Positions 28,247 through 39,514 of a DNA stretch of 46,375 nucleotides are shown here, one piece after another. How positions within the stretch are numbered: position 1 is the stretch's first letter; every line of letters begins with the position of its first letter. The notes below the pieces were generated by a model. That model ran no database searches. It saw nothing but the letters and a program-made list of their open reading frames with translations, and was not told the DNA's origin. The DNA comes from Escherichia phage N15: the sequence record NC_001901.1. One strand, given 5' to 3'. The position numbers were made by a program, and so were the translations under genes.

Positions 28247-28411
28247 GGTATGCATTCCTATCTTGTATAGGGTGCTACCACCAGAGTTGAGAATCTCTAT
28301 AGGGGTGGTAGCCCAGACAGGGTTCTCAACACCGGTACAAGAAGAAACCGGCCCAACCGAAGTTGGCCCCATCTGAGCCACCATAATTCAGGTATGCGCA
28401 GATTTAACACA

Positions 28412-28490
28412 CAAAAAAACACGCTGGCGCGTGTTGTGCGCTTCTTGTCATTCGGGGTTGAGAGGCCCGGCTGCAGATTTTGCTGCAGCG
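28412..28490 (-). ncRNA. cA: Candidate leader-encoded regulatory RNA of the anti-immunity operon (cA-type, analogous to P1 c4)
   Basis: Promoter TTGACG-18-TAGAGT (28496..28525). CUGCAG-caaaau-CUGCAG hairpin. Terminator ACACGC-gcca-GCGTGT plus U7 ending about 28413. Confidence 0.5.
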
Positions 28491-28495
28491 GGGTA

Positions 28496-28525
28496 ACTCT
28501 ACCGCCAAAGCAGAACGCACGTCAA
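28496..28525 (-). promoter_or_regulatory. Candidate promoter of the anti-immunity operon (Pa)
   Basis: TTGACG (28520..28525) and TAGAGT (28496..28501) read on the minus strand. Confidence 0.5.
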
Positions 28526-28547
28526 TAATTTAGGTGGATATTTTACC

Positions 28548-28562
28548 CCGTGACCAGTCACG
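28548..28562. promoter_or_regulatory. 15-bp motif CGTGACTGGTCACGG (read on the minus strand) containing the palindrome GTGAC-TG-GTCAC; copy 1 of 2
   Basis: An exact second copy lies at 39268..39282 on the + strand. Both copies are oriented with local transcription. Confidence 0.6.
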
Positions 28563-28575
28563 TGCACAGGTGTTT

Positions 28576-28591
28576 TTATAGTTTGCTTTAC
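28576..28591. promoter_or_regulatory. Candidate fifth CB-type operator upstream of the anti-immunity region
   Basis: TTATAGTTTGCTTTAC matches the TTATAG...GCT.TAA pattern of the cB-cro operators. Overlaps a TATAAA -10-like hexamer on the minus strand. Confidence 0.35.
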
Positions 28592-28594
28592 TGA

Positions 28595-28613
28595 CTGATC
28601 AGAACCTGATCAG
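28595..28613. repeat. Two CTGATCAG palindromes separated by 3 nt (perfect 8-bp hairpin; two Dam GATC sites)
   Basis: CTGATCAG-aac-CTGATCAG, abutting the stop codon of gene 28614..28964. Confidence 0.8.
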
Positions 28614-28964
28614 TTATTGGAGTCCGGTAATCTTATTGATGACCGCAGCCACCTTAGATGTTGTCTCAAACCCCATACGGCCACGAATGAGCCACTGGAA
28701 CGGAATAGTCAGCAGGTACAGCGGAACGAACCACAAACGGTTCAGACGCTGCCAGAACGTCGCATCACGACGTTCCATCCATTCGGTATTGTCGACGACC
28801 TGGTAAGCGTATTGTCCTGGCGTTTTTGCTGCTTCCGAGTAGCAATCCTCTTCACCACAAAGAAAGTTACTTATCTGCTTCCAGTTTTCGAACCCTTCTT
28901 CTTTGAGCCGCTTTTCCAGCTCATTCCTCCACAAAACAGGCACCCATCCTCTGCGATAAATCAT
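28614..28964 (-). CDS. Hypothetical membrane protein
   Basis: 116 aa. ATG at 28964 lies 2 nt after the upstream stop. Hydrophobic LWFVPLYLLTIPFQWLI segment. Confidence 0.6.
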   Translation of the reverse strand: MIYRRGWVPVLWRNELEKRLKEEGFENWKQISNFLCGEEDCYSEAAKTPGQYAYQVVDNTEWMERRDATFWQRLNRLWFVPLYLLTIPFQWLIRGRMGFETTSKVAAVINKITGLQ

Positions 28965-28966
28965 GA

Positions 28967-29296
28967 TTATTTGTCCTTTAAATAAGGCTGTAGAACTGCA
29001 AAATCGCTCTCGTTCACATGCTGTACGTAGATGCGTAGCAAATTGCCGTTCCATCCCTGTAATCCACCTTCTTTGGAAAGATCGTCCTTGACCTCACGAA
29101 GAACCTTATCCAATAGCCCTGCGGCACAAGAAATTGCCTGCTCTGGATCAGCAAATTCATATTGATTAATAGGTGATTGCCACACACCAAAAACAGGAAT
29201 CATCTTTTCGGCTAAACGCCTCTCCTGTTCTTTCTTAATCTCAAGTTGTAAGCGGACCAGCTCACCATCCATCATTTTTTGTAGATCATGCGCCAC
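28967..29296 (-). CDS. Hypothetical protein
   Basis: 109-aa ORF tightly packed in the repA-downstream operon. Confidence 0.6.
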   Translation of the reverse strand: MAHDLQKMMDGELVRLQLEIKKEQERRLAEKMIPVFGVWQSPINQYEFADPEQAISCAAGLLDKVLREVKDDLSKEGGLQGWNGNLLRIYVQHVNESDFAVLQPYLKDK

Positions 29297-29885: not shown

Positions 29886-32800
29886 TTATATCGCCACGGC
29901 TTGCCGCTGGCTTAGAAACGCTTTCAGCAGCCTTATTTCGCGTACTGATAGCAGGTCCATAAATTCGGTCATGTACAGCGAGGCGAACGTTCTCGCGATG
30001 CTGGCCACTGGCCACAGGCGTACCGCCTCCATTTCGGTTGCTGGCAACGCGTTCTCCGCCCACGCCTCCGGTACCGCCACCGGGATAGCCTCCAGTGCCT
30101 GGATAATTACTGATTGTGGGGCGTCCGGAACGTGCTCTGTTTTGGATCGAGGGTTACCATGTATATCTATATTTAGATCCAAATCGCGATCCACTTCGAT
30201 GGTGGTTTTTTCCACCTTACGTGCGTGAATTGATAAACCGGCCTCGCGGCGCTTCTCCACGATATTCATGAGGAACTCGACCGAGTCCGGGTCAATGGAA
30301 CGCATCGTGGGGCGTGCATCGCCGTCTCTGGCGCGTCTGGTCTTACTGGATAGCCCCATAGACTCCAGGATGCCTATGCAGAGGTCTGCAGGCGCTTTCT
30401 TCTTGCCTTTCTCTGTGTTGAAGCCGCCGATGCGTAAAACGTTGTTTAGCAGATCGCGCCGTTCCGGCGTGAGCAGGTTATCTCTGGCGCGTTTGAGGGC
30501 GTCCATGTCTGCTTCACCTTCCAGGGTTTTTGGATCGATACCGCAGTCGCGGAAGTACTGCTGCAGCGTCGCCGATTTGAGGGTGTAGAAACCACGCATG
30601 CCTATCTCAACAGCAGGGGTCGATTTCACTCGGTAATCGGTTATGGCCGGGAATTTAGCCTGGAACTCTGCGTCGGCCTGTTCCCGCGTCATGGCCGTAG
30701 TGACGAACTGCTGCCATCTTCCGGCAACGCGATAAGCGTAGGTAAAGTGAATCAACGCTTCTTCACGGTCAAGGCGACGGGCGGTTATCTCATCCAGCTG
30801 CATGGTTTCAAACAGGCGCACTTTTTTCAGGCCGCCGTCGAAATAGAATTTTAACGCCACCTCGTCGACATCCAGCTGCAGCTCCTTTTCGATGTCCCAG
30901 CGGACCAGCTGGGCCTGCTCATCCAGGGACAGGGTGCGTTTTTTTATCAACTCATCGTGTTCGGCCTGGTCAGGAGTATCGACACTCAGGTGGCGCTCCA
31001 TAAGCTGCTCAAAGACCAGTTCACGGGCTTCTTTACGTAAATCCTTACCGATGCTGTTTGCAAGCGCGTCGGTGGCCATAGGCGCGACCTGATAGCCATC
31101 ATCATGCATGATGCAAATCATGTTGCTGGCATAATCATTTCTGGCCGATGCCTCGAGCGCGGCGGCTTTAATTTTGAGCTGCATGAATGAAGAGTTAGCC
31201 ACGCCGAGTGAAATTCGGTCACCGTCAAAGACAACGTCTGTCAGCAGCCCGGAGTGGCCAGCCGTTTCGAGCAAGGCCTGCGCGTAGGCGCGTTTGATTT
31301 TTTCCGGATCGGTTTCACGTTTACCGCGAAGCTTGTCGAAACCGATAATGTATTCCTGAGCTGTACGGTCGCGGCGCAGCATCTGGATGGCGTCGCTGGG
31401 GACCACTTCGCCGCAGAACATGCCGAAATGGCGGTGGAAGTGTTTCTCCTCAATCGATACACCTGAAGATATCGACGGGCTGTAGATGAGGCCGTCATAT
31501 TTTTTCACCATCACTTTAGGCTGGTTGGTGAAATCGTCGACTTCCTTCTCCTGTTTGTTTTTCTGGTTAACGCAGAGAAACTTTTTGTCAGGGAACTGTA
31601 GTCTCAGCTGCATGGTAACGTCTTCGGCGAACGTCGAACTGTCGGTGGCCAGCATGATTCGTTCGCCGCGTTGCACTGCAGCGATAACCTCGGTCATGAT
31701 CCGATTTTTCTCGGTATAAAATACGCGGATAGGCTTGTTGGTTTCGCGGTTGCGAACGTCGACCGGGAGTTCAATCACGTGAATTTGCAGCCAGGCAGGT
31801 AGGCCCAGCTCCTCGCGTCGCTTCATCGCCAGTTCAGCCAGGTCAACAAGCAGATCGTTGGCATCGGCATCCACCATAATGGCATGCTCTTCAGTACGCG
31901 CCAGCGCGTCGATAAGCGTGTTGAATACGCCTACCGGGTTTTCCATCGCACGCCCGGCCAGAATGGCACGCAGGCCCTGTGTTGCTTCATCGAAGCCGAA
32001 GAAGTCATGCTGGCGCATCAGCGGTTGCCAGCAGCCTTTAAGTATGGAGTTGATGCAAATAGTCAGCTTGTTGGCATATGGCGCCATTTCCTGATAGCCG
32101 GGATCCTGATAATGCAGAATGTCGGCTTTCGCGCCTTTCCCTTCGGTCATCATTTCATGCAGGCCGCCTATCAGGGATACGCGGTGCGCGACGGAAACGC
32201 CACGCGTGGACTGCAGCATCAGTGGACGCAGGAGGCCTGTCGATTTACCCGACCCCATCCCGGCGCGGACAATAACGATGCCCTGCAGCTGTGCGGCGTA
32301 TGTCATCACCTCATCGGTCATCCTGGAGGTTTCAAACCGTTTGTAAGTGATGTGTGACGGGCGAAGGTTCGGGTTGGTGATGCGTTCACTGAACGAACGT
32401 GATGTTTGCGCGGCACGGCATTTGCGATTCAACCGGCGCGTAATGTGATCTTTAACGGTACCGTTATAAATTTCTGCGATACCCATATCCCGCAGCGTGC
32501 TGCTGAAAAGGCGCATAAGTTCTTTCGGGCTGTTTGGTACCGGGCATGTCAGCATGCCAATATCAACGGCGCGAAGCAGTTCTTTGGCAAAAGTGCGTCT
32601 GTTCAGACGCGGGAGAGTACGCAGCTTATTCAGCGTGATCGACAACAGGTCGGTTGCACGGCTCAGATGATTTCTCGTTAACTGGCGAGCGACTTCCTTC
32701 AGCCCTCTCAGGCTGTGCAGGTCGTTAAAATCGCTGCATTCCAGCTCAGGGTCATCCTCAAAAGTTGGGTAAACACATTTGACGCCGGAAAACTTCTCCA

Positions 32801-33860
32801 TGATGTCGAATCCGGTGCGGAGGCCTGTGTTGCCTTTTCCTTCAGCTGAGGATTTGCGGTCGTTATCGAGAGCGCAAGTGATTTGCGCAGCCGGGTACAT
32901 GTTCACCAGCTGCTCGACAACGTGAATCATGTTGTTAGCGGAAACCGCAATGACTACCGCGTCAAAGCGTTTTTTCGGGTCGTTTCTGGTCGCCAGCCAG
33001 ATGGATGCCCCGGTGGCGAAACCCTCTGCAGTCGCAATTTTTTGCGCCCCCTGCAGGTCGCCAATAACAAAGCATGCACCGACGAAATCACCGTTAGTGA
33101 TGGCGCTGGTCTGGAACTTGCCACCATTCAGATCGATACGTTGCCAGCCAACAATCCGCCCGTCTTTTCTTCCGTCCAGGTGGGACAGAGGTATCGCCAT
33201 GTAAGTTGTTGGTCCACGGCTCCATTTCGCACTGTCGTGACTGGTCACGCGACGTATATCACAAGCGCCAAATACGTCACGAATTCCCTTTTTTACCGCA
33301 TAAGGCCAGGAGCCATCTTCAGCTGGCGAATGTTCCCAGGCGCGATGGAAAGCCAACCATCCAAGCAGGCGTTCCTGCTCCATCTGATTGTTTTTTAAAT
33401 CATTAACGCGTTGTTGTTCAGCTCGGAGGCGGCGTGCTTCAGCCTGGCGCTCCATGCGTGCACGTTCTTCTTCCGGCTGAGCGACCACGGTCGCACCATT
33501 CCGTTGCTGTTCACGGCGATACTCCGAAAACAGGAATGAAAAGCCACTCCAGGAGCCAGCGTCATGCGCTTTTTCAACGAAGTTAACGAAAGGATAACTG
33601 ATGCCATCCTTGCTCTGCTCAAGGCGTGAATAGATTTCCACACGGCCTTTAAGGCTCTTCTGCAGAGCTTCCGGGGAGGAATTATTGTAGGTGGTATAGC
33701 GCTCTACACCACCGCGCGGATTGAGCTGAATCTTATCAGCACACGCAGGCCAGTTGATACCGGCCATCTTCGCCAGCTCAGTCAGCTCATCACGTGCCGC
33801 GTCAAGCAGTGAAAACGGATCGCTGCCAAAGCGCTCCGCGTAGAATTCTTGTAAGGTCAT
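29886..33860 (-). CDS. repA: Replication protein RepA (primase / Toprim plus helicase multidomain replicase)
   Basis: 1324 aa. Toprim-like TAEGFATGASI...CALDNDRKSSAEGKGNTG. Walker A VRAGMGSGKST. Plasmid-type replicase known as the only N15 gene needed for plasmid replication. Confidence 0.95.
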   Translation of the reverse strand: MTLQEFYAERFGSDPFSLLDAARDELTELAKMAGINWPACADKIQLNPRGGVERYTTYNNSSPEALQKSLKGRVEIYSRLEQSKDGISYPFVNFVEKAHDAGSWSGFSFLFSEYRREQQRNGATVVAQPEEERARMERQAEARRLRAEQQRVNDLKNNQMEQERLLGWLAFHRAWEHSPAEDGSWPYAVKKGIRDVFGACDIRRVTSHDSAKWSRGPTTYMAIPLSHLDGRKDGRIVGWQRIDLNGGKFQTSAITNGDFVGACFVIGDLQGAQKIATAEGFATGASIWLATRNDPKKRFDAVVIAVSANNMIHVVEQLVNMYPAAQITCALDNDRKSSAEGKGNTGLRTGFDIMEKFSGVKCVYPTFEDDPELECSDFNDLHSLRGLKEVARQLTRNHLSRATDLLSITLNKLRTLPRLNRRTFAKELLRAVDIGMLTCPVPNSPKELMRLFSSTLRDMGIAEIYNGTVKDHITRRLNRKCRAAQTSRSFSERITNPNLRPSHITYKRFETSRMTDEVMTYAAQLQGIVIVRAGMGSGKSTGLLRPLMLQSTRGVSVAHRVSLIGGLHEMMTEGKGAKADILHYQDPGYQEMAPYANKLTICINSILKGCWQPLMRQHDFFGFDEATQGLRAILAGRAMENPVGVFNTLIDALARTEEHAIMVDADANDLLVDLAELAMKRREELGLPAWLQIHVIELPVDVRNRETNKPIRVFYTEKNRIMTEVIAAVQRGERIMLATDSSTFAEDVTMQLRLQFPDKKFLCVNQKNKQEKEVDDFTNQPKVMVKKYDGLIYSPSISSGVSIEEKHFHRHFGMFCGEVVPSDAIQMLRRDRTAQEYIIGFDKLRGKRETDPEKIKRAYAQALLETAGHSGLLTDVVFDGDRISLGVANSSFMQLKIKAAALEASARNDYASNMICIMHDDGYQVAPMATDALANSIGKDLRKEARELVFEQLMERHLSVDTPDQAEHDELIKKRTLSLDEQAQLVRWDIEKELQLDVDEVALKFYFDGGLKKVRLFETMQLDEITARRLDREEALIHFTYAYRVAGRWQQFVTTAMTREQADAEFQAKFPAITDYRVKSTPAVEIGMRGFYTLKSATLQQYFRDCGIDPKTLEGEADMDALKRARDNLLTPERRDLLNNVLRIGGFNTEKGKKKAPADLCIGILESMGLSSKTRRARDGDARPTMRSIDPDSVEFLMNIVEKRREAGLSIHARKVEKTTIEVDRDLDLNIDIHGNPRSKTEHVPDAPQSVIIQALEAIPVAVPEAWAENALPATEMEAVRLWPVASIARTFASLYMTEFMDLLSVREIRLLKAFLSQRQAVAI
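30141..30215. other. ori: Candidate replication origin core inside the 3' part of repA
   Basis: TTGGATC / GATCCAA inverted repeat (30141..30147, 30175..30181) flanks the AT-rich catgtatatctatattta. Several GATC sites. GGTGG-tttttt-CCACC hairpin. The N15 ori is reported to lie within the repA 3' region. Confidence 0.3.
33479..33496. promoter_or_regulatory. Centromere-like palindrome (SopB site) inside repA
   Basis: GAGCGACC-AC-GGTCGCAC, one arm mismatch relative to the other three sites. Architecture resembles F sopC TGGGACC-AC-GGTCCCA. Confidence 0.7.
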
Positions 33861-33932: not shown

Positions 33933-34013
33933 ACTATCTTTCTGAAGGACGTATCTGCGTTATCGTGGCTACTTCCTGAAAAAGGCCCGAGTTTGCCGAC
34001 TCGGGTTTTTTTT
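33933..34013 (+). ncRNA. Candidate antisense RNA to the repA leader
   Basis: + strand promoter TTGAAA-17-CACAAT (33898..33926). Hairpin AACGCA...TGCGTT. Terminator CCCGAGT-ttgccg-ACTCGGG plus T8 (33986..34013). Confidence 0.45.
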
Positions 34014-34078
34014 CGTCTTTTTTCGGCTGCTACGGTCTGGTTCAACCCCGACAAAGTATAGATCGGATTAAACCAGAA

Positions 34079-34094
34079 TTATAGTCAGCAATAA
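34079..34094. promoter_or_regulatory. CB-type operator overlapping the -10 (TATAAT, minus strand, 34078..34083) of the putative repA promoter
   Basis: TTATAGTCAGCAATAA matches the 16-bp TTAT....ATAA operators of the cB-cro region (12/16 to TTATAGCTGGCTATAA). Confidence 0.6.
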
Positions 34095-34108
34095 ACCCTG
34101 TTATTGTA

Positions 34109-34717
34109 TCATCTACCCTCAACCATGAACGATTTGATCGTACCGACTACTTGGTGCACAAATTGAAGATCACTTTTATCATGGATAACCCGTTGAGAGT
34201 TAGCACTATCAAGGTAGTAATGCTGCTCGTCATAACGGGCTAATCGTTGAATTGTGATCTCGCCGTTATTATCACAAACCAGTACATCCTCACCCGGTAC
34301 AAGCGTAAGTGAAGAATCGACCAGGATAACGTCTCCCGGCTGGTAGTTTCGCTGAATCTGGTTCCCGACCGTCAGTGCGTAAACGGTGTTCCGTTGACTC
34401 ACGAACGGCAGGAATCGCTCTGTGTTGGCAGGTTCTCCAGGCTGCCAGTCTCTATCCGGTCCGGTCTCTGTCGTACCAATAACAGGAACGCGGTCTGGAT
34501 CAGATTCAGTGCCATACAGTATCCATTGCACGGGCTTACGCAGGCATTTTGCCAGCGATAGCCCGATCTCCAGCGACGGCATCACGTCGCCACGTTCTAA
34601 GTTTTGGACGCCCGGAAGAGAGATTCCTACAGCTTCTGCCACTTGCTTCAGCGTCAGTTTCAGCTCTAAACGGCGTGCTTTCAGTCGTTCGCCTCGTGTT
34701 TTCATACCCTTAATCAT
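34109..34717 (-). CDS. cB: Prophage repressor CB (HTH_XRE N-domain plus degenerate S24/LexA-like C-domain)
   Basis: KARRLELKLTLKQVAEAVGISLPGVQNLERG HTH. C-domain YALTVGNQIQRNYQPGDVILVD is CI/LexA-like. Divergent from cro. Confidence 0.9.
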   Translation of the reverse strand: MIKGMKTRGERLKARRLELKLTLKQVAEAVGISLPGVQNLERGDVMPSLEIGLSLAKCLRKPVQWILYGTESDPDRVPVIGTTETGPDRDWQPGEPANTERFLPFVSQRNTVYALTVGNQIQRNYQPGDVILVDSSLTLVPGEDVLVCDNNGEITIQRLARYDEQHYYLDSANSQRVIHDKSDLQFVHQVVGTIKSFMVEGR

Positions 34718-34728
34718 AAATGATCTCT

Positions 34729-34744
34729 TTATAGCTGGCTATAA
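34729..34744. promoter_or_regulatory. Operator 1 in the cB-cro intergenic region
   Basis: TTATAGC-TG-GCTATAA, a 16-bp palindrome. Confidence 0.65.
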
Positions 34745-34754
34745 TTTTTATAAA

Positions 34755-34770
34755 TTATACCTAGCTTTAA
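34755..34770. promoter_or_regulatory. Operator 2 in the cB-cro intergenic region
   Basis: TTATACCTAGCTTTAA, 12/16 match to operator 1. Confidence 0.55.
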
Positions 34771-38945: not shown

Positions 38946-39272
38946 ATGGCACTGACACCCGCAGAACGGCAAAGGATCCGCCGAGAGAAGCTAAAAAAGC
39001 AAGGAACCACCAGGCGTGATTGGGTTCTGGAGCCGGATGAGCTGCGTATGCTCGGCGAAATTTGCATACAGCGTCGTCCGGGGCGAGAGCCGTATTCTGA
39101 AAATGAGGTTATTGGCCTCCTGATCCGCAAGAACTACAAAGAGCTGCAAAAGAAACTTTCCGGTTCGTGTTCGCGGTGTGGGAAGCAACTTCCGGTAGCC
39201 GATTGCCTGTTTGATGGCGAAGGTACATGCCAGCTGACCACTCTCAGATTGAAGCTGGCCATTAAAGCGTGA
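38946..39272 (+). CDS. Hypothetical basic protein with C-terminal CxxC
   Basis: AGGAG lies 8 nt upstream of the ATG. LTPAERQRIRREKLKKQG N-terminus. Stop codon is embedded in the 15-bp palindrome motif. Confidence 0.6.
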   Translation: MALTPAERQRIRREKLKKQGTTRRDWVLEPDELRMLGEICIQRRPGREPYSENEVIGLLIRKNYKELQKKLSGSCSRCGKQLPVADCLFDGEGTCQLTTLRLKLAIKA

Positions 39273-39282
39273 CTGGTCACGG
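39268..39282. promoter_or_regulatory. Second copy of the 15-bp motif CGTGACTGGTCACGG
   Basis: Exact match to the minus-strand reading of 28548..28562. Lies 10 nt upstream of the ATG at 39293. Confidence 0.6.
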
Positions 39283-39292
39283 AGGGTTAAAA

Positions 39293-39514
39293 ATGGATAA
39301 AAAAGCATTGTTATTCGAACGCCTTCGGCAGAGAAGCGAAAGCAGTCTGGCCAGCGGAGGTGATGGGTTTATTTTTGCCTCAATGCTGGCGTTCGACATC
39401 GGTCTGAACACAAGAACGATCCGGGGGATGCTGGACTCTGCTGTGAAAAATGGAACCCTGGAAAAAAAAGAACGTGGAGCTGGCCGTGCACATAAGTACC
39501 GGACAATTCAGTAG
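39293..39514 (+). CDS. Small winged-helix-like protein, hypothetical regulator
   Basis: GGAGGG RBS. 73 aa ending KNGTLEKKERGAGRAHKYRTIQ. Confidence 0.55.
   Translation: MDKKALLFERLRQRSESSLASGGDGFIFASMLAFDIGLNTRTIRGMLDSAVKNGTLEKKERGAGRAHKYRTIQ

Follow-up and report, generated by a model that had tools for sequence, protein, structure and literature searches.

The genome of Escherichia phage N15 (NC_001901.1), analysed here over its whole length of 46,375 bp (hereafter the window), has the gene order of phiKO2 and other Ravinvirus: telN, the anti-immunity operon, repA, cB/cro/Q, the early genes and a LexA-controlled antirepressor. Bases 28300-28796 match the N15 telN-cA record U63086 with 100% identity. 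Three loci along this genome share a short palindromic sequence. The 15-mer CGTGACTGGTCACGG occurs exactly at 28548-28562 on the minus strand, beside the anti-immunity operon, and at 39268-39282 on the plus strand, at the end of gene 46. A first-pass annotation, made from the letters of the genome, had reported these two occurrences, and our search of the window confirmed both. It had overlooked one more copy within the coding region of repA (33236-33250, +), which mismatches CGTGACTGGTCACGG at the 15th base only. Since the repA copy differs at this base alone, the true unit is a 14-bp dyad, CGTGAC-TG-GTCACG, and not a 15-mer. This perfect palindrome is present three times in N15 (sites 1 to 3, Table 1).

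Table 1. Features of the N15 window discussed in the text.
Feature	Position	Strand	Description
Site 1	28549..28562	-	CGTGAC-TG-GTCACG, read on the minus strand
Site 2	33236..33249	+	CGTGAC-TG-GTCACG in repA, codons ~204-209 (RVTSHD, minus strand)
Site 3	39268..39281	+	CGTGAC-TG-GTCACG; holds the last codon and TGA stop of gene 46
Possible auxiliary half-site	33275..33281	+	CGTCACG, 26 nt downstream of site 2
repA CDS	29886..33860	-	Contains site 2
Stop codon of last repA-operon ORF	28616-28614	-	ORF 28614..29054
Inverted repeat	28612-28592	-	ACTGATCAG-gtt-CTGATCAGT, upstream of TATAAA and site 1
TATAAA	28580-28575	-	-10-like element
Promoter-like element	28525-28496	-	TTGACG-18-TAGAGT; TTGACG retained in N15-like consensus
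isrK-like RNA with terminator	28489-28414	-	Rfam RF01394, 62.4 bits, above gathering score
C4/CA antisense RNA	28388-28301	-	Rfam RF01695, 78.8 bits, above gathering score
icd-antA-antB	Downstream of C4 RNA	-	Anti-immunity operon
Gene 46	38946..39272	+	108 aa; predicted Arg-rich N-terminal helix, ribbon-helix-helix core and C-terminal Cys4 zinc ribbon
Gene 47	39293..39514	+	73 aa, wHTH-like; PHROG 13995, weak FeoC-like match

Three perfect copies compare with about 0.02-0.05 expected in N15. When up to two mismatches were accepted about 0.02 matches were expected, and none of 100 shuffles reached at least three. Allowing one mismatch in the core GTGAC-NN-GTCAC retrieved no extra site in N15. 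A single 15-mer coincidence in 46 kb had previously been deemed improbable; simple arithmetic gives about two exact pairs by chance in a sequence of this length. Hence, the exact 15-mer pair is insufficient by itself, and the significance of the motif comes from its three copies, its dyad symmetry and its conservation. The original observation is real and was understated: N15 carries three deeply conserved sites, not two. Over all the genomes described below the consensus is Y-GTGAC-NN-GTCAC-R, of which CGTGAC-TG-GTCACG is the N15 form.

Site 1 lies 52 nt past the stop codon of the last ORF of the repA operon, 13 nt past the TATAAA element and 23 nt ahead of the -35 hexamer of the promoter-like element, which precedes the isrK-like RNA, the C4 RNA and icd-antA-antB. 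It covers positions ~+6 to +19 (centre ~+12) relative to the start defined by TATAAA, and is centred at ~-66 from the start implied by the promoter-like element. A promoter-like element is thus present beside this copy, where the first-pass annotation had placed a promoter. The CB-operator-like neighbour that it also described could not be confirmed; the inverted repeat upstream of the site is unlike the immB operator TTATAGC-tg-GCTATAA. The repeat is perfect, begins 2 nt past the stop of ORF 28614..29054 and contains two GATC (Dam) sites. The isrK-like RNA directly upstream of the C4/CA RNA forms a tandem that resembles the isrK/antirepressor regions of Salmonella prophages. A further small RNA match, to STnc100 (RF02076, 72.5 bits, above gathering score), was found in the late/tail region of N15 at 19863-20048 (+).

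Site 3 overlaps the TGA stop of gene 46, as first described, and ends 10-11 nt before the ATG of gene 47 at 39293; it is followed directly by GGAGGG, the Shine-Dalgarno sequence of that gene. The TG centre of site 2 reads against the direction of repA transcription. The two copies first noticed had been said to point with local transcription, which is not general, because the repA copy is opposed to it and the AT centre found in epsilon15 (see below) has no orientation. The CGTCACG sequence after site 2 may be an auxiliary half-site: three consecutive third-codon positions of this block never vary among 24 unique N15-like sequences. Extra half-sites after the stop-codon site are also seen in the Yersinia phage vB_YenM_31.17 and in locus L154. 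Another palindrome of repA, GCGACCACGGTCGC (33481-33494), resembles a SopB-type centromere; its distance to site 2 is 232 bp measured from the end of that site, or 245 bp from start to start. The phiKO2 annotation has a "putative plasmid partitioning site" in the corresponding part of repA. The motif was rightly held to differ from the other known sites of N15: neither the CB operator at 34729-34744, nor the LexA box CTGTGTTTATATACAG at ~39563, nor this SopB-like palindrome matches GTGAC-NN-GTCAC.

Conservation in related phage-plasmids had been suggested as a check on the motif, and we found it in every N15-like relative examined. The three phage records phiKO2, YDC107_1 and MStein-2023a keep all three sites at the same position and in the same orientation. 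We retrieved 51 further N15-like loci from IMG/VR with the gene 46 protein (~54 genomes in all), and these also have the three sites wherever the 10-kb flank reaches them. Site 3 is present in 51/51 loci and 3/3 phage records. Site 1 is found in every IMG/VR locus that reaches it, with changes confined to the centre dinucleotide or the outermost base. The surrounding DNA is just ~70-88% identical among these genomes. Over the three sites the half-sites are invariant, the sole variation being T to G in the centre (L007, L009 and L019) and C to T at the outermost base. Invariant half-sites around a tolerant centre are the pattern expected of a dimeric DNA-binding protein. In L007 sites 1 and 3 (996 and 10323) have GG in place of TG in the centre, and the repA site is unchanged; in L009 (229) and L019 (246) only the anti-immunity site is changed. 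None of the 14 columns of the repA site varies in the 24 unique N15-like sequences, whereas neighbouring third-codon positions do. The frozen synonymous positions mean that selection acts on the DNA sequence rather than on the RepA protein.

The motif is not restricted to N15-like phages. The unrelated Salmonella podovirus epsilon15 encodes a homologue of the gene 46 product (gp46), gp49, which is 37% identical to it and is the last gene before terS; the record of epsilon15 identifies ORF 38946..39272 as N15 gene 46. The epsilon15 genome has exactly three matches to GTGACATGTCAC, against 0.05 expected, all with AT in the centre. One of them contains the TGA stop of gp49, as in N15 gene 46, another contains the stop of gp18, also TGA, just ahead of an annotated terminator, and another lies 27 nt past terL. 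All three (2142, 19517 and 39612 in L056) are at the 3' ends of consecutive rightward blocks (gp49, terL, gp18).

The pairing extends to the relatives of epsilon15. In 80 epsilon15-like loci we counted 143 sites in 1.38 Mb, where 1.3 were expected. By a heuristic that can miscount, 72 of the 80 loci have an ORF of at least 90 codons that ends in a site. Most loci have one site exactly at the end of the match to the gp49 homologue and a second one ~2.2-2.9 kb downstream. The centres vary (AT, AG, AC, GT, CT) and the half-sites are constant. The bases next to the core might have covaried with lineage, an idea that we dropped because Y...R suits both lineages and the last codon confounds the 5' flank of stop-codon sites.

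We then gathered 15 more distant homologues with 25-41% identity, in six phage records, seven metagenomic or genomic contigs with flanks and two Vibrio IMG/VR loci. Eight of them have their own TGA stop embedded in a site, including those of Pantoea phage AH07, the P2-like Yersinia phage vB_YenM_31.17 and Vibrio phage PE002A. In Pectobacterium phage ZF40 the site begins 2 nt past the TAA stop, and in the two Vibrio IMG/VR loci it is at the end of the protein match (the stop codon itself was not read). Four of the 15 lack a site in the flank examined; YenM_42.18 and Va_PF430-3, for example, have none within 600 bp. Among nine representatives with 25-40% identity the own TGA stop is embedded in a site in five cases, and two have no site within 1 kb. 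In L152 the site is 138 nt downstream of the stop, and L153 has a variant with a 1-nt spacer, TGTGAC-g-GTCACA (1367-1379), 13 nt past its TAA stop. This variant suggests that clades of the family may use spacers of unequal length. The number of sites per genome also differs. YenM_31.17 has a single one in its whole genome, and AH07 has two matches to GTGACATGTCAC, the second at 34430-34441 (L144) within a Q-like antitermination gene (33956..34759). This internal AH07 site encodes C-V-T-C-H and may be functional or a coding by-product.

The phage PY54, which is related to N15 and has telomeres like it, provides the reciprocal case, as it has neither a homologue of gp46 nor the motif. Its RepA is 45% identical to that of N15 around site 2, where PY54 has an insertion, a different sequence and no site. 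Among the N15 ORFs of at least 45 aa, gene 46 is the only one that is common to epsilon15, AH07 and YenM_31.17 and absent from PY54. Gene 46 and its site thus appear to form a portable module, with one site in the gene's own stop (G-TGA-C) and zero to two elsewhere.

Homologues of gp46 are also encoded by plasmids, in 943 records of which 689 are conjugative. IncN conjugative plasmids encode a 114-aa protein of the family directly after stbABC (2414-2758 in pEcNDM1, L158). The IncN homologues (L158, L159) have no site on the stop codon, and only variants with a 1-nt spacer elsewhere. In pEcNDM1, GTGAC-A-GTCAC is found 24 nt upstream of the start of the gene (2390-2400) and within it (2492-2502), where it encodes a VTVT strand.

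PHROG 536, a group with the label "transcriptional regulator", includes gp46, which has no match in Pfam or NCBIfam. An exhaustive profile search collected 108 homologues. With a shallow alignment the AlphaFold2 model was unusable (pLDDT 54), and we used instead a deep alignment of 64 sequences, which gave a pLDDT of 89.7. The predicted structure has the ribbon-helix-helix (RHH) succession of one beta-strand and two helices, a fold that pairs as a dimer. Curated RHH families gave no significant match: one or two of the 64 homologues were marginally matched by RHH_1, RHH_5 or RepB-RCR_reg (E 0.013-0.07). In the Arg-rich helix that precedes the RHH core, R8 is invariant and R13 nearly so. The zinc ribbon would be formed by C75, C78, C87 and C95. 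The residues of the RHH beta-strand are poorly conserved in the family, and the half-site is invariant, which suggests that recognition would rest mainly on the Arg-rich helix.

The co-occurrence of this protein with a dyad-symmetric site indicates that gp46 probably binds the three N15 sites. Our main reading, to which we give a probability of roughly 0.6, is that the motif is a double-stranded DNA site for a gp46 dimer, i.e., the operator of an RHH regulator that may work as a repressor or roadblock. Against gp46 as the binder count the poor conservation of its beta-strand residues, the four distant homologues that lack a site near their stop, and the IncN homologues with their 1-nt-spacer variants. 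The first-pass annotation had called for an unassigned DNA- or RNA-binding factor; the DNA-binding factor has stood, and neither the wHTH protein proposed for the role nor the RNA hairpin has (see below). Our search of the literature found nothing relevant on the motif, on gp46 or on epsilon15 gp49. The papers on N15 that it returned make no mention of the motif, and no description of it in a phage context was found.

Two groups of known regulators resemble gp46 as read here. Arc and Mnt of phage P22 are small RHH repressors with palindromic operators in the control region of an antirepressor operon, like gp46 and site 1, and the immA region of N15 is analogous to immI of P22 and P1. Arc and Mnt are encoded within immI and have operators of ~17-21 bp at promoters. 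The gene for gp46, in contrast, is 10 kb distant, its product carries a zinc ribbon, and further sites are found within repA and at the stop codon of gene 46. We found no sequence similarity between gp46 and either protein. Plasmid repressors of the CopB/RepB type (Pfam RepB-RCR_reg) have an "ERQ..R.R" basic helix followed by an RHH, as does gp46. Two of the 64 family members matched RepB-RCR_reg marginally, below the Pfam threshold, and the AH07 homologue is annotated as "RepB-like". In contrast to gp46, the CopB/RepB-type proteins lack a zinc ribbon and have their operators at promoters.

If gp46 is a negative regulator, the protein would be made from the early rightward operon and occupy the three N15 sites as a repressor or as a roadblock to elongation. 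Bound at site 1, it would block transcription from entering the CA-RNA/icd-antA-antB anti-immunity operon. At site 2 it would truncate the transcription of repA. At site 3 it would limit the expression of gene 47 and downstream genes, and could feed back on gp46 itself via stop-less transcripts. The argument is purely positional, and taken by itself we put this mode of action forward tentatively, at well below even odds. We favour a negative role because site 1 is just past a -10-like TATAAA, at the end of the repA operon and ahead of the anti-immunity leader, because N15 has a site inside repA and AH07 one inside a Q-like gene, and because the epsilon15 sites mark the ends of rightward blocks.

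A positive role of bound gp46 is improbable and has some points in its favour. The protein could be a DNA-loaded local antiterminator, by a logic like that of Q, or could activate the promoter below site 1, given its place at ~-66. Between sites 19517 and 39612 of epsilon15 and the annotated intrinsic (rho-independent) terminators that follow them at operon junctions there are 14-34 nt, or 3-23 nt counted edge to edge; the third site has just a weak terminator-like match nearby. The profile of gp46 weakly matched the structures of TraR and YbiI, which bind the RNA polymerase, over the zinc ribbon (E 0.016-0.019; C..CG..[IL]P....F.G...C). Local antitermination would fit the placement of the epsilon15 sites equally well, and the position of epsilon15 gp49 as last early gene before terS is compatible with it. 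On the other side, the DksA/TraR finger is C-x2-C-x17-C-x2-C after a long helix, a cysteine spacing that differs from that of gp46. N15 has no terminator near sites 2 and 3, the sites within repA and the Q-like gene fit antitermination poorly, and both N15 and AH07 already encode Q-like antiterminators.

The half-sites also raise the possibility that the binder is a host protein. MatP is present in Enterobacterales and Vibrio, and the hosts of all the phages and plasmids that bear the gp46 family fall in the same range. The half-sites GTGAC and GTCAC are identical to those of the MatP motif GTGACRNYGTCAC (PMC6907758, Table 2), the matS site being a 13-bp GTGAC-RNY-GTCAC. MatP, or another factor of Enterobacterales and Vibrionales, would then bind the motif, and gp46 would be tied to it otherwise, e.g., as a competitor or cofactor. 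We regard this as quite unlikely, since a site for a host protein would not be expected to track one phage gene or sit on its stop codon in unrelated phages. Furthermore, almost all sites have a spacer of 2 nt where matS has 3, and N15 and epsilon15 contain no GTGAC-N3-GTCAC.

The resemblance of gp46 to MatP is at the fold level of the RHH core alone. None of the 64 family members matched the MatP domains of Pfam (PF06303, PF17414), and alignment of the gp46 profile to the single E. coli MatP by hhalign was not significant (probability 0.4%, E 0.15). With MatP as query, protein searches brought up nothing but near-identical sequences of E. coli, and hence no diverse MatP profile was available for this comparison. 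MatP has an N-terminal four-helix bundle and a C-terminal coiled coil; gp46 has neither, and has the Cys4 zinc ribbon instead. The matS sites are chromosomal, whereas the gp46-type element is on phages and plasmids.

The analogy with MatP can be taken in another way, with about as little chance of being right. Oligomers of gp46 might bridge dispersed sites, as MatP bridges matS, and so loop or condense the phage genome. The two or three dispersed sites in each N15-like and epsilon15-like genome would suit such a role, as would the RHH fold, which is that of MatP and of the type Ib centromere-binding proteins. On the other side, YenM_31.17 has a single site in its whole genome, and gp46 has no evident oligomerisation domain.

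That the motif acts as an RNA hairpin, or arose by chance or as a by-product of coding, is very unlikely. A hairpin with a 5-bp stem and a CUGG loop can be drawn, as the first-pass annotation had done, and site 3 folds in this way in its minimum-energy structure. Yet, folded with 13 nt of flank on either side, the motif has no better energy than shuffled sequences (z -1.2 to +0.9), and the minimum-energy structure often leaves the palindrome out, as at site 1. In repA the motif runs antisense to the other two copies, and the epsilon15 version would give a stem of just 4 bp. Neither site 1 nor site 3 has a terminator-like hairpin, and no Rfam family covers the motif. Chance is excluded by the counts in N15, in epsilon15 and in the epsilon15-like loci, and a coding constraint by the frozen synonymous positions in repA. 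Separately, we rejected CRP, SlmA, a restriction-modification target, a SECIS-like or stop read-through element and a terminase site, either for mismatch in spacing or sequence or because there is no shared enzyme in the profile.

The least probable reading is the one first proposed, in which the wHTH protein gp47 was the obvious binder and coupled two antirepressor loci: although gp47 adjoins site 3, is conserved in N15-like phages and has a weak winged-helix (FeoC-like) match (E 0.027), PY54 keeps a 47%-identical homologue of gp47 and no motif, and epsilon15, AH07, YenM_31.17 and the Vibrio phages carry the motif and no such homologue. Scans of gp47 and its neighbours with Pfam and NCBIfam gave nothing significant. 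Judged by co-occurrence, gene 47 is a neighbour of the motif and its partner is gene 46, whose product had been named merely as a second candidate for EMSA. The link between two antirepressor loci does not hold either. The third, equally conserved copy is inside repA, which is not an antirepressor locus, and the motif of other phages is at operon ends, within a Q-like gene, or confined to the stop codon of the gene for the gp46 homologue.

Returning to gp46 as a repressor or roadblock, the position of its operator has a possible parallel in lacI. Abo and colleagues are said to have reported in 2000 that LacI, bound close to the 3' end of its gene, gives rise to truncated, stop-less lacI mRNA and to SsrA tagging. 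Both systems would place the operator where the regulator's gene ends, and in both a roadblock is proposed as autoregulation. In the gp46 family, unlike in lacI, the putative operator includes the stop codon, a position kept by very divergent homologues. In a fuller scheme, which we think rather doubtful, the family would use the half-sites of matS at another spacing, with an operator in its own stop codon where a stalled RNA polymerase would leave stop-less mRNA, and this would provide self-limitation through tmRNA, insulation of the genes downstream and possibly an interface with MatP/Ter. If true, this would be a conserved "3'-operator" device for feedback and insulation.

N15 and epsilon15 are long-studied model phages, and the motif and its probable binder were previously unassigned. 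If gp46 binds its sites, N15 has a further regulator that touches the anti-immunity control region, repA and the gene 46/47 block beside antC. This would add an extra layer to the control of the lysis-lysogeny decision and of copy number. The gene of a putative regulator that carries the motif in its own stop codon is conserved among siphoviruses, podoviruses, myoviruses and P2-like phages. Many temperate phages that infect Enterobacterales and Vibrio have this pairing, and the protein is also on many conjugative plasmids, there without the stop-codon site. The analysis offers a candidate function for an uncharacterised family, PHROG 536, which has no Pfam family, and a regulatory module that can be tested. 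The identity of the half-sites with those of matS raises the question of whether mobile elements might copy, or avoid, the signals by which their hosts organise Ter.
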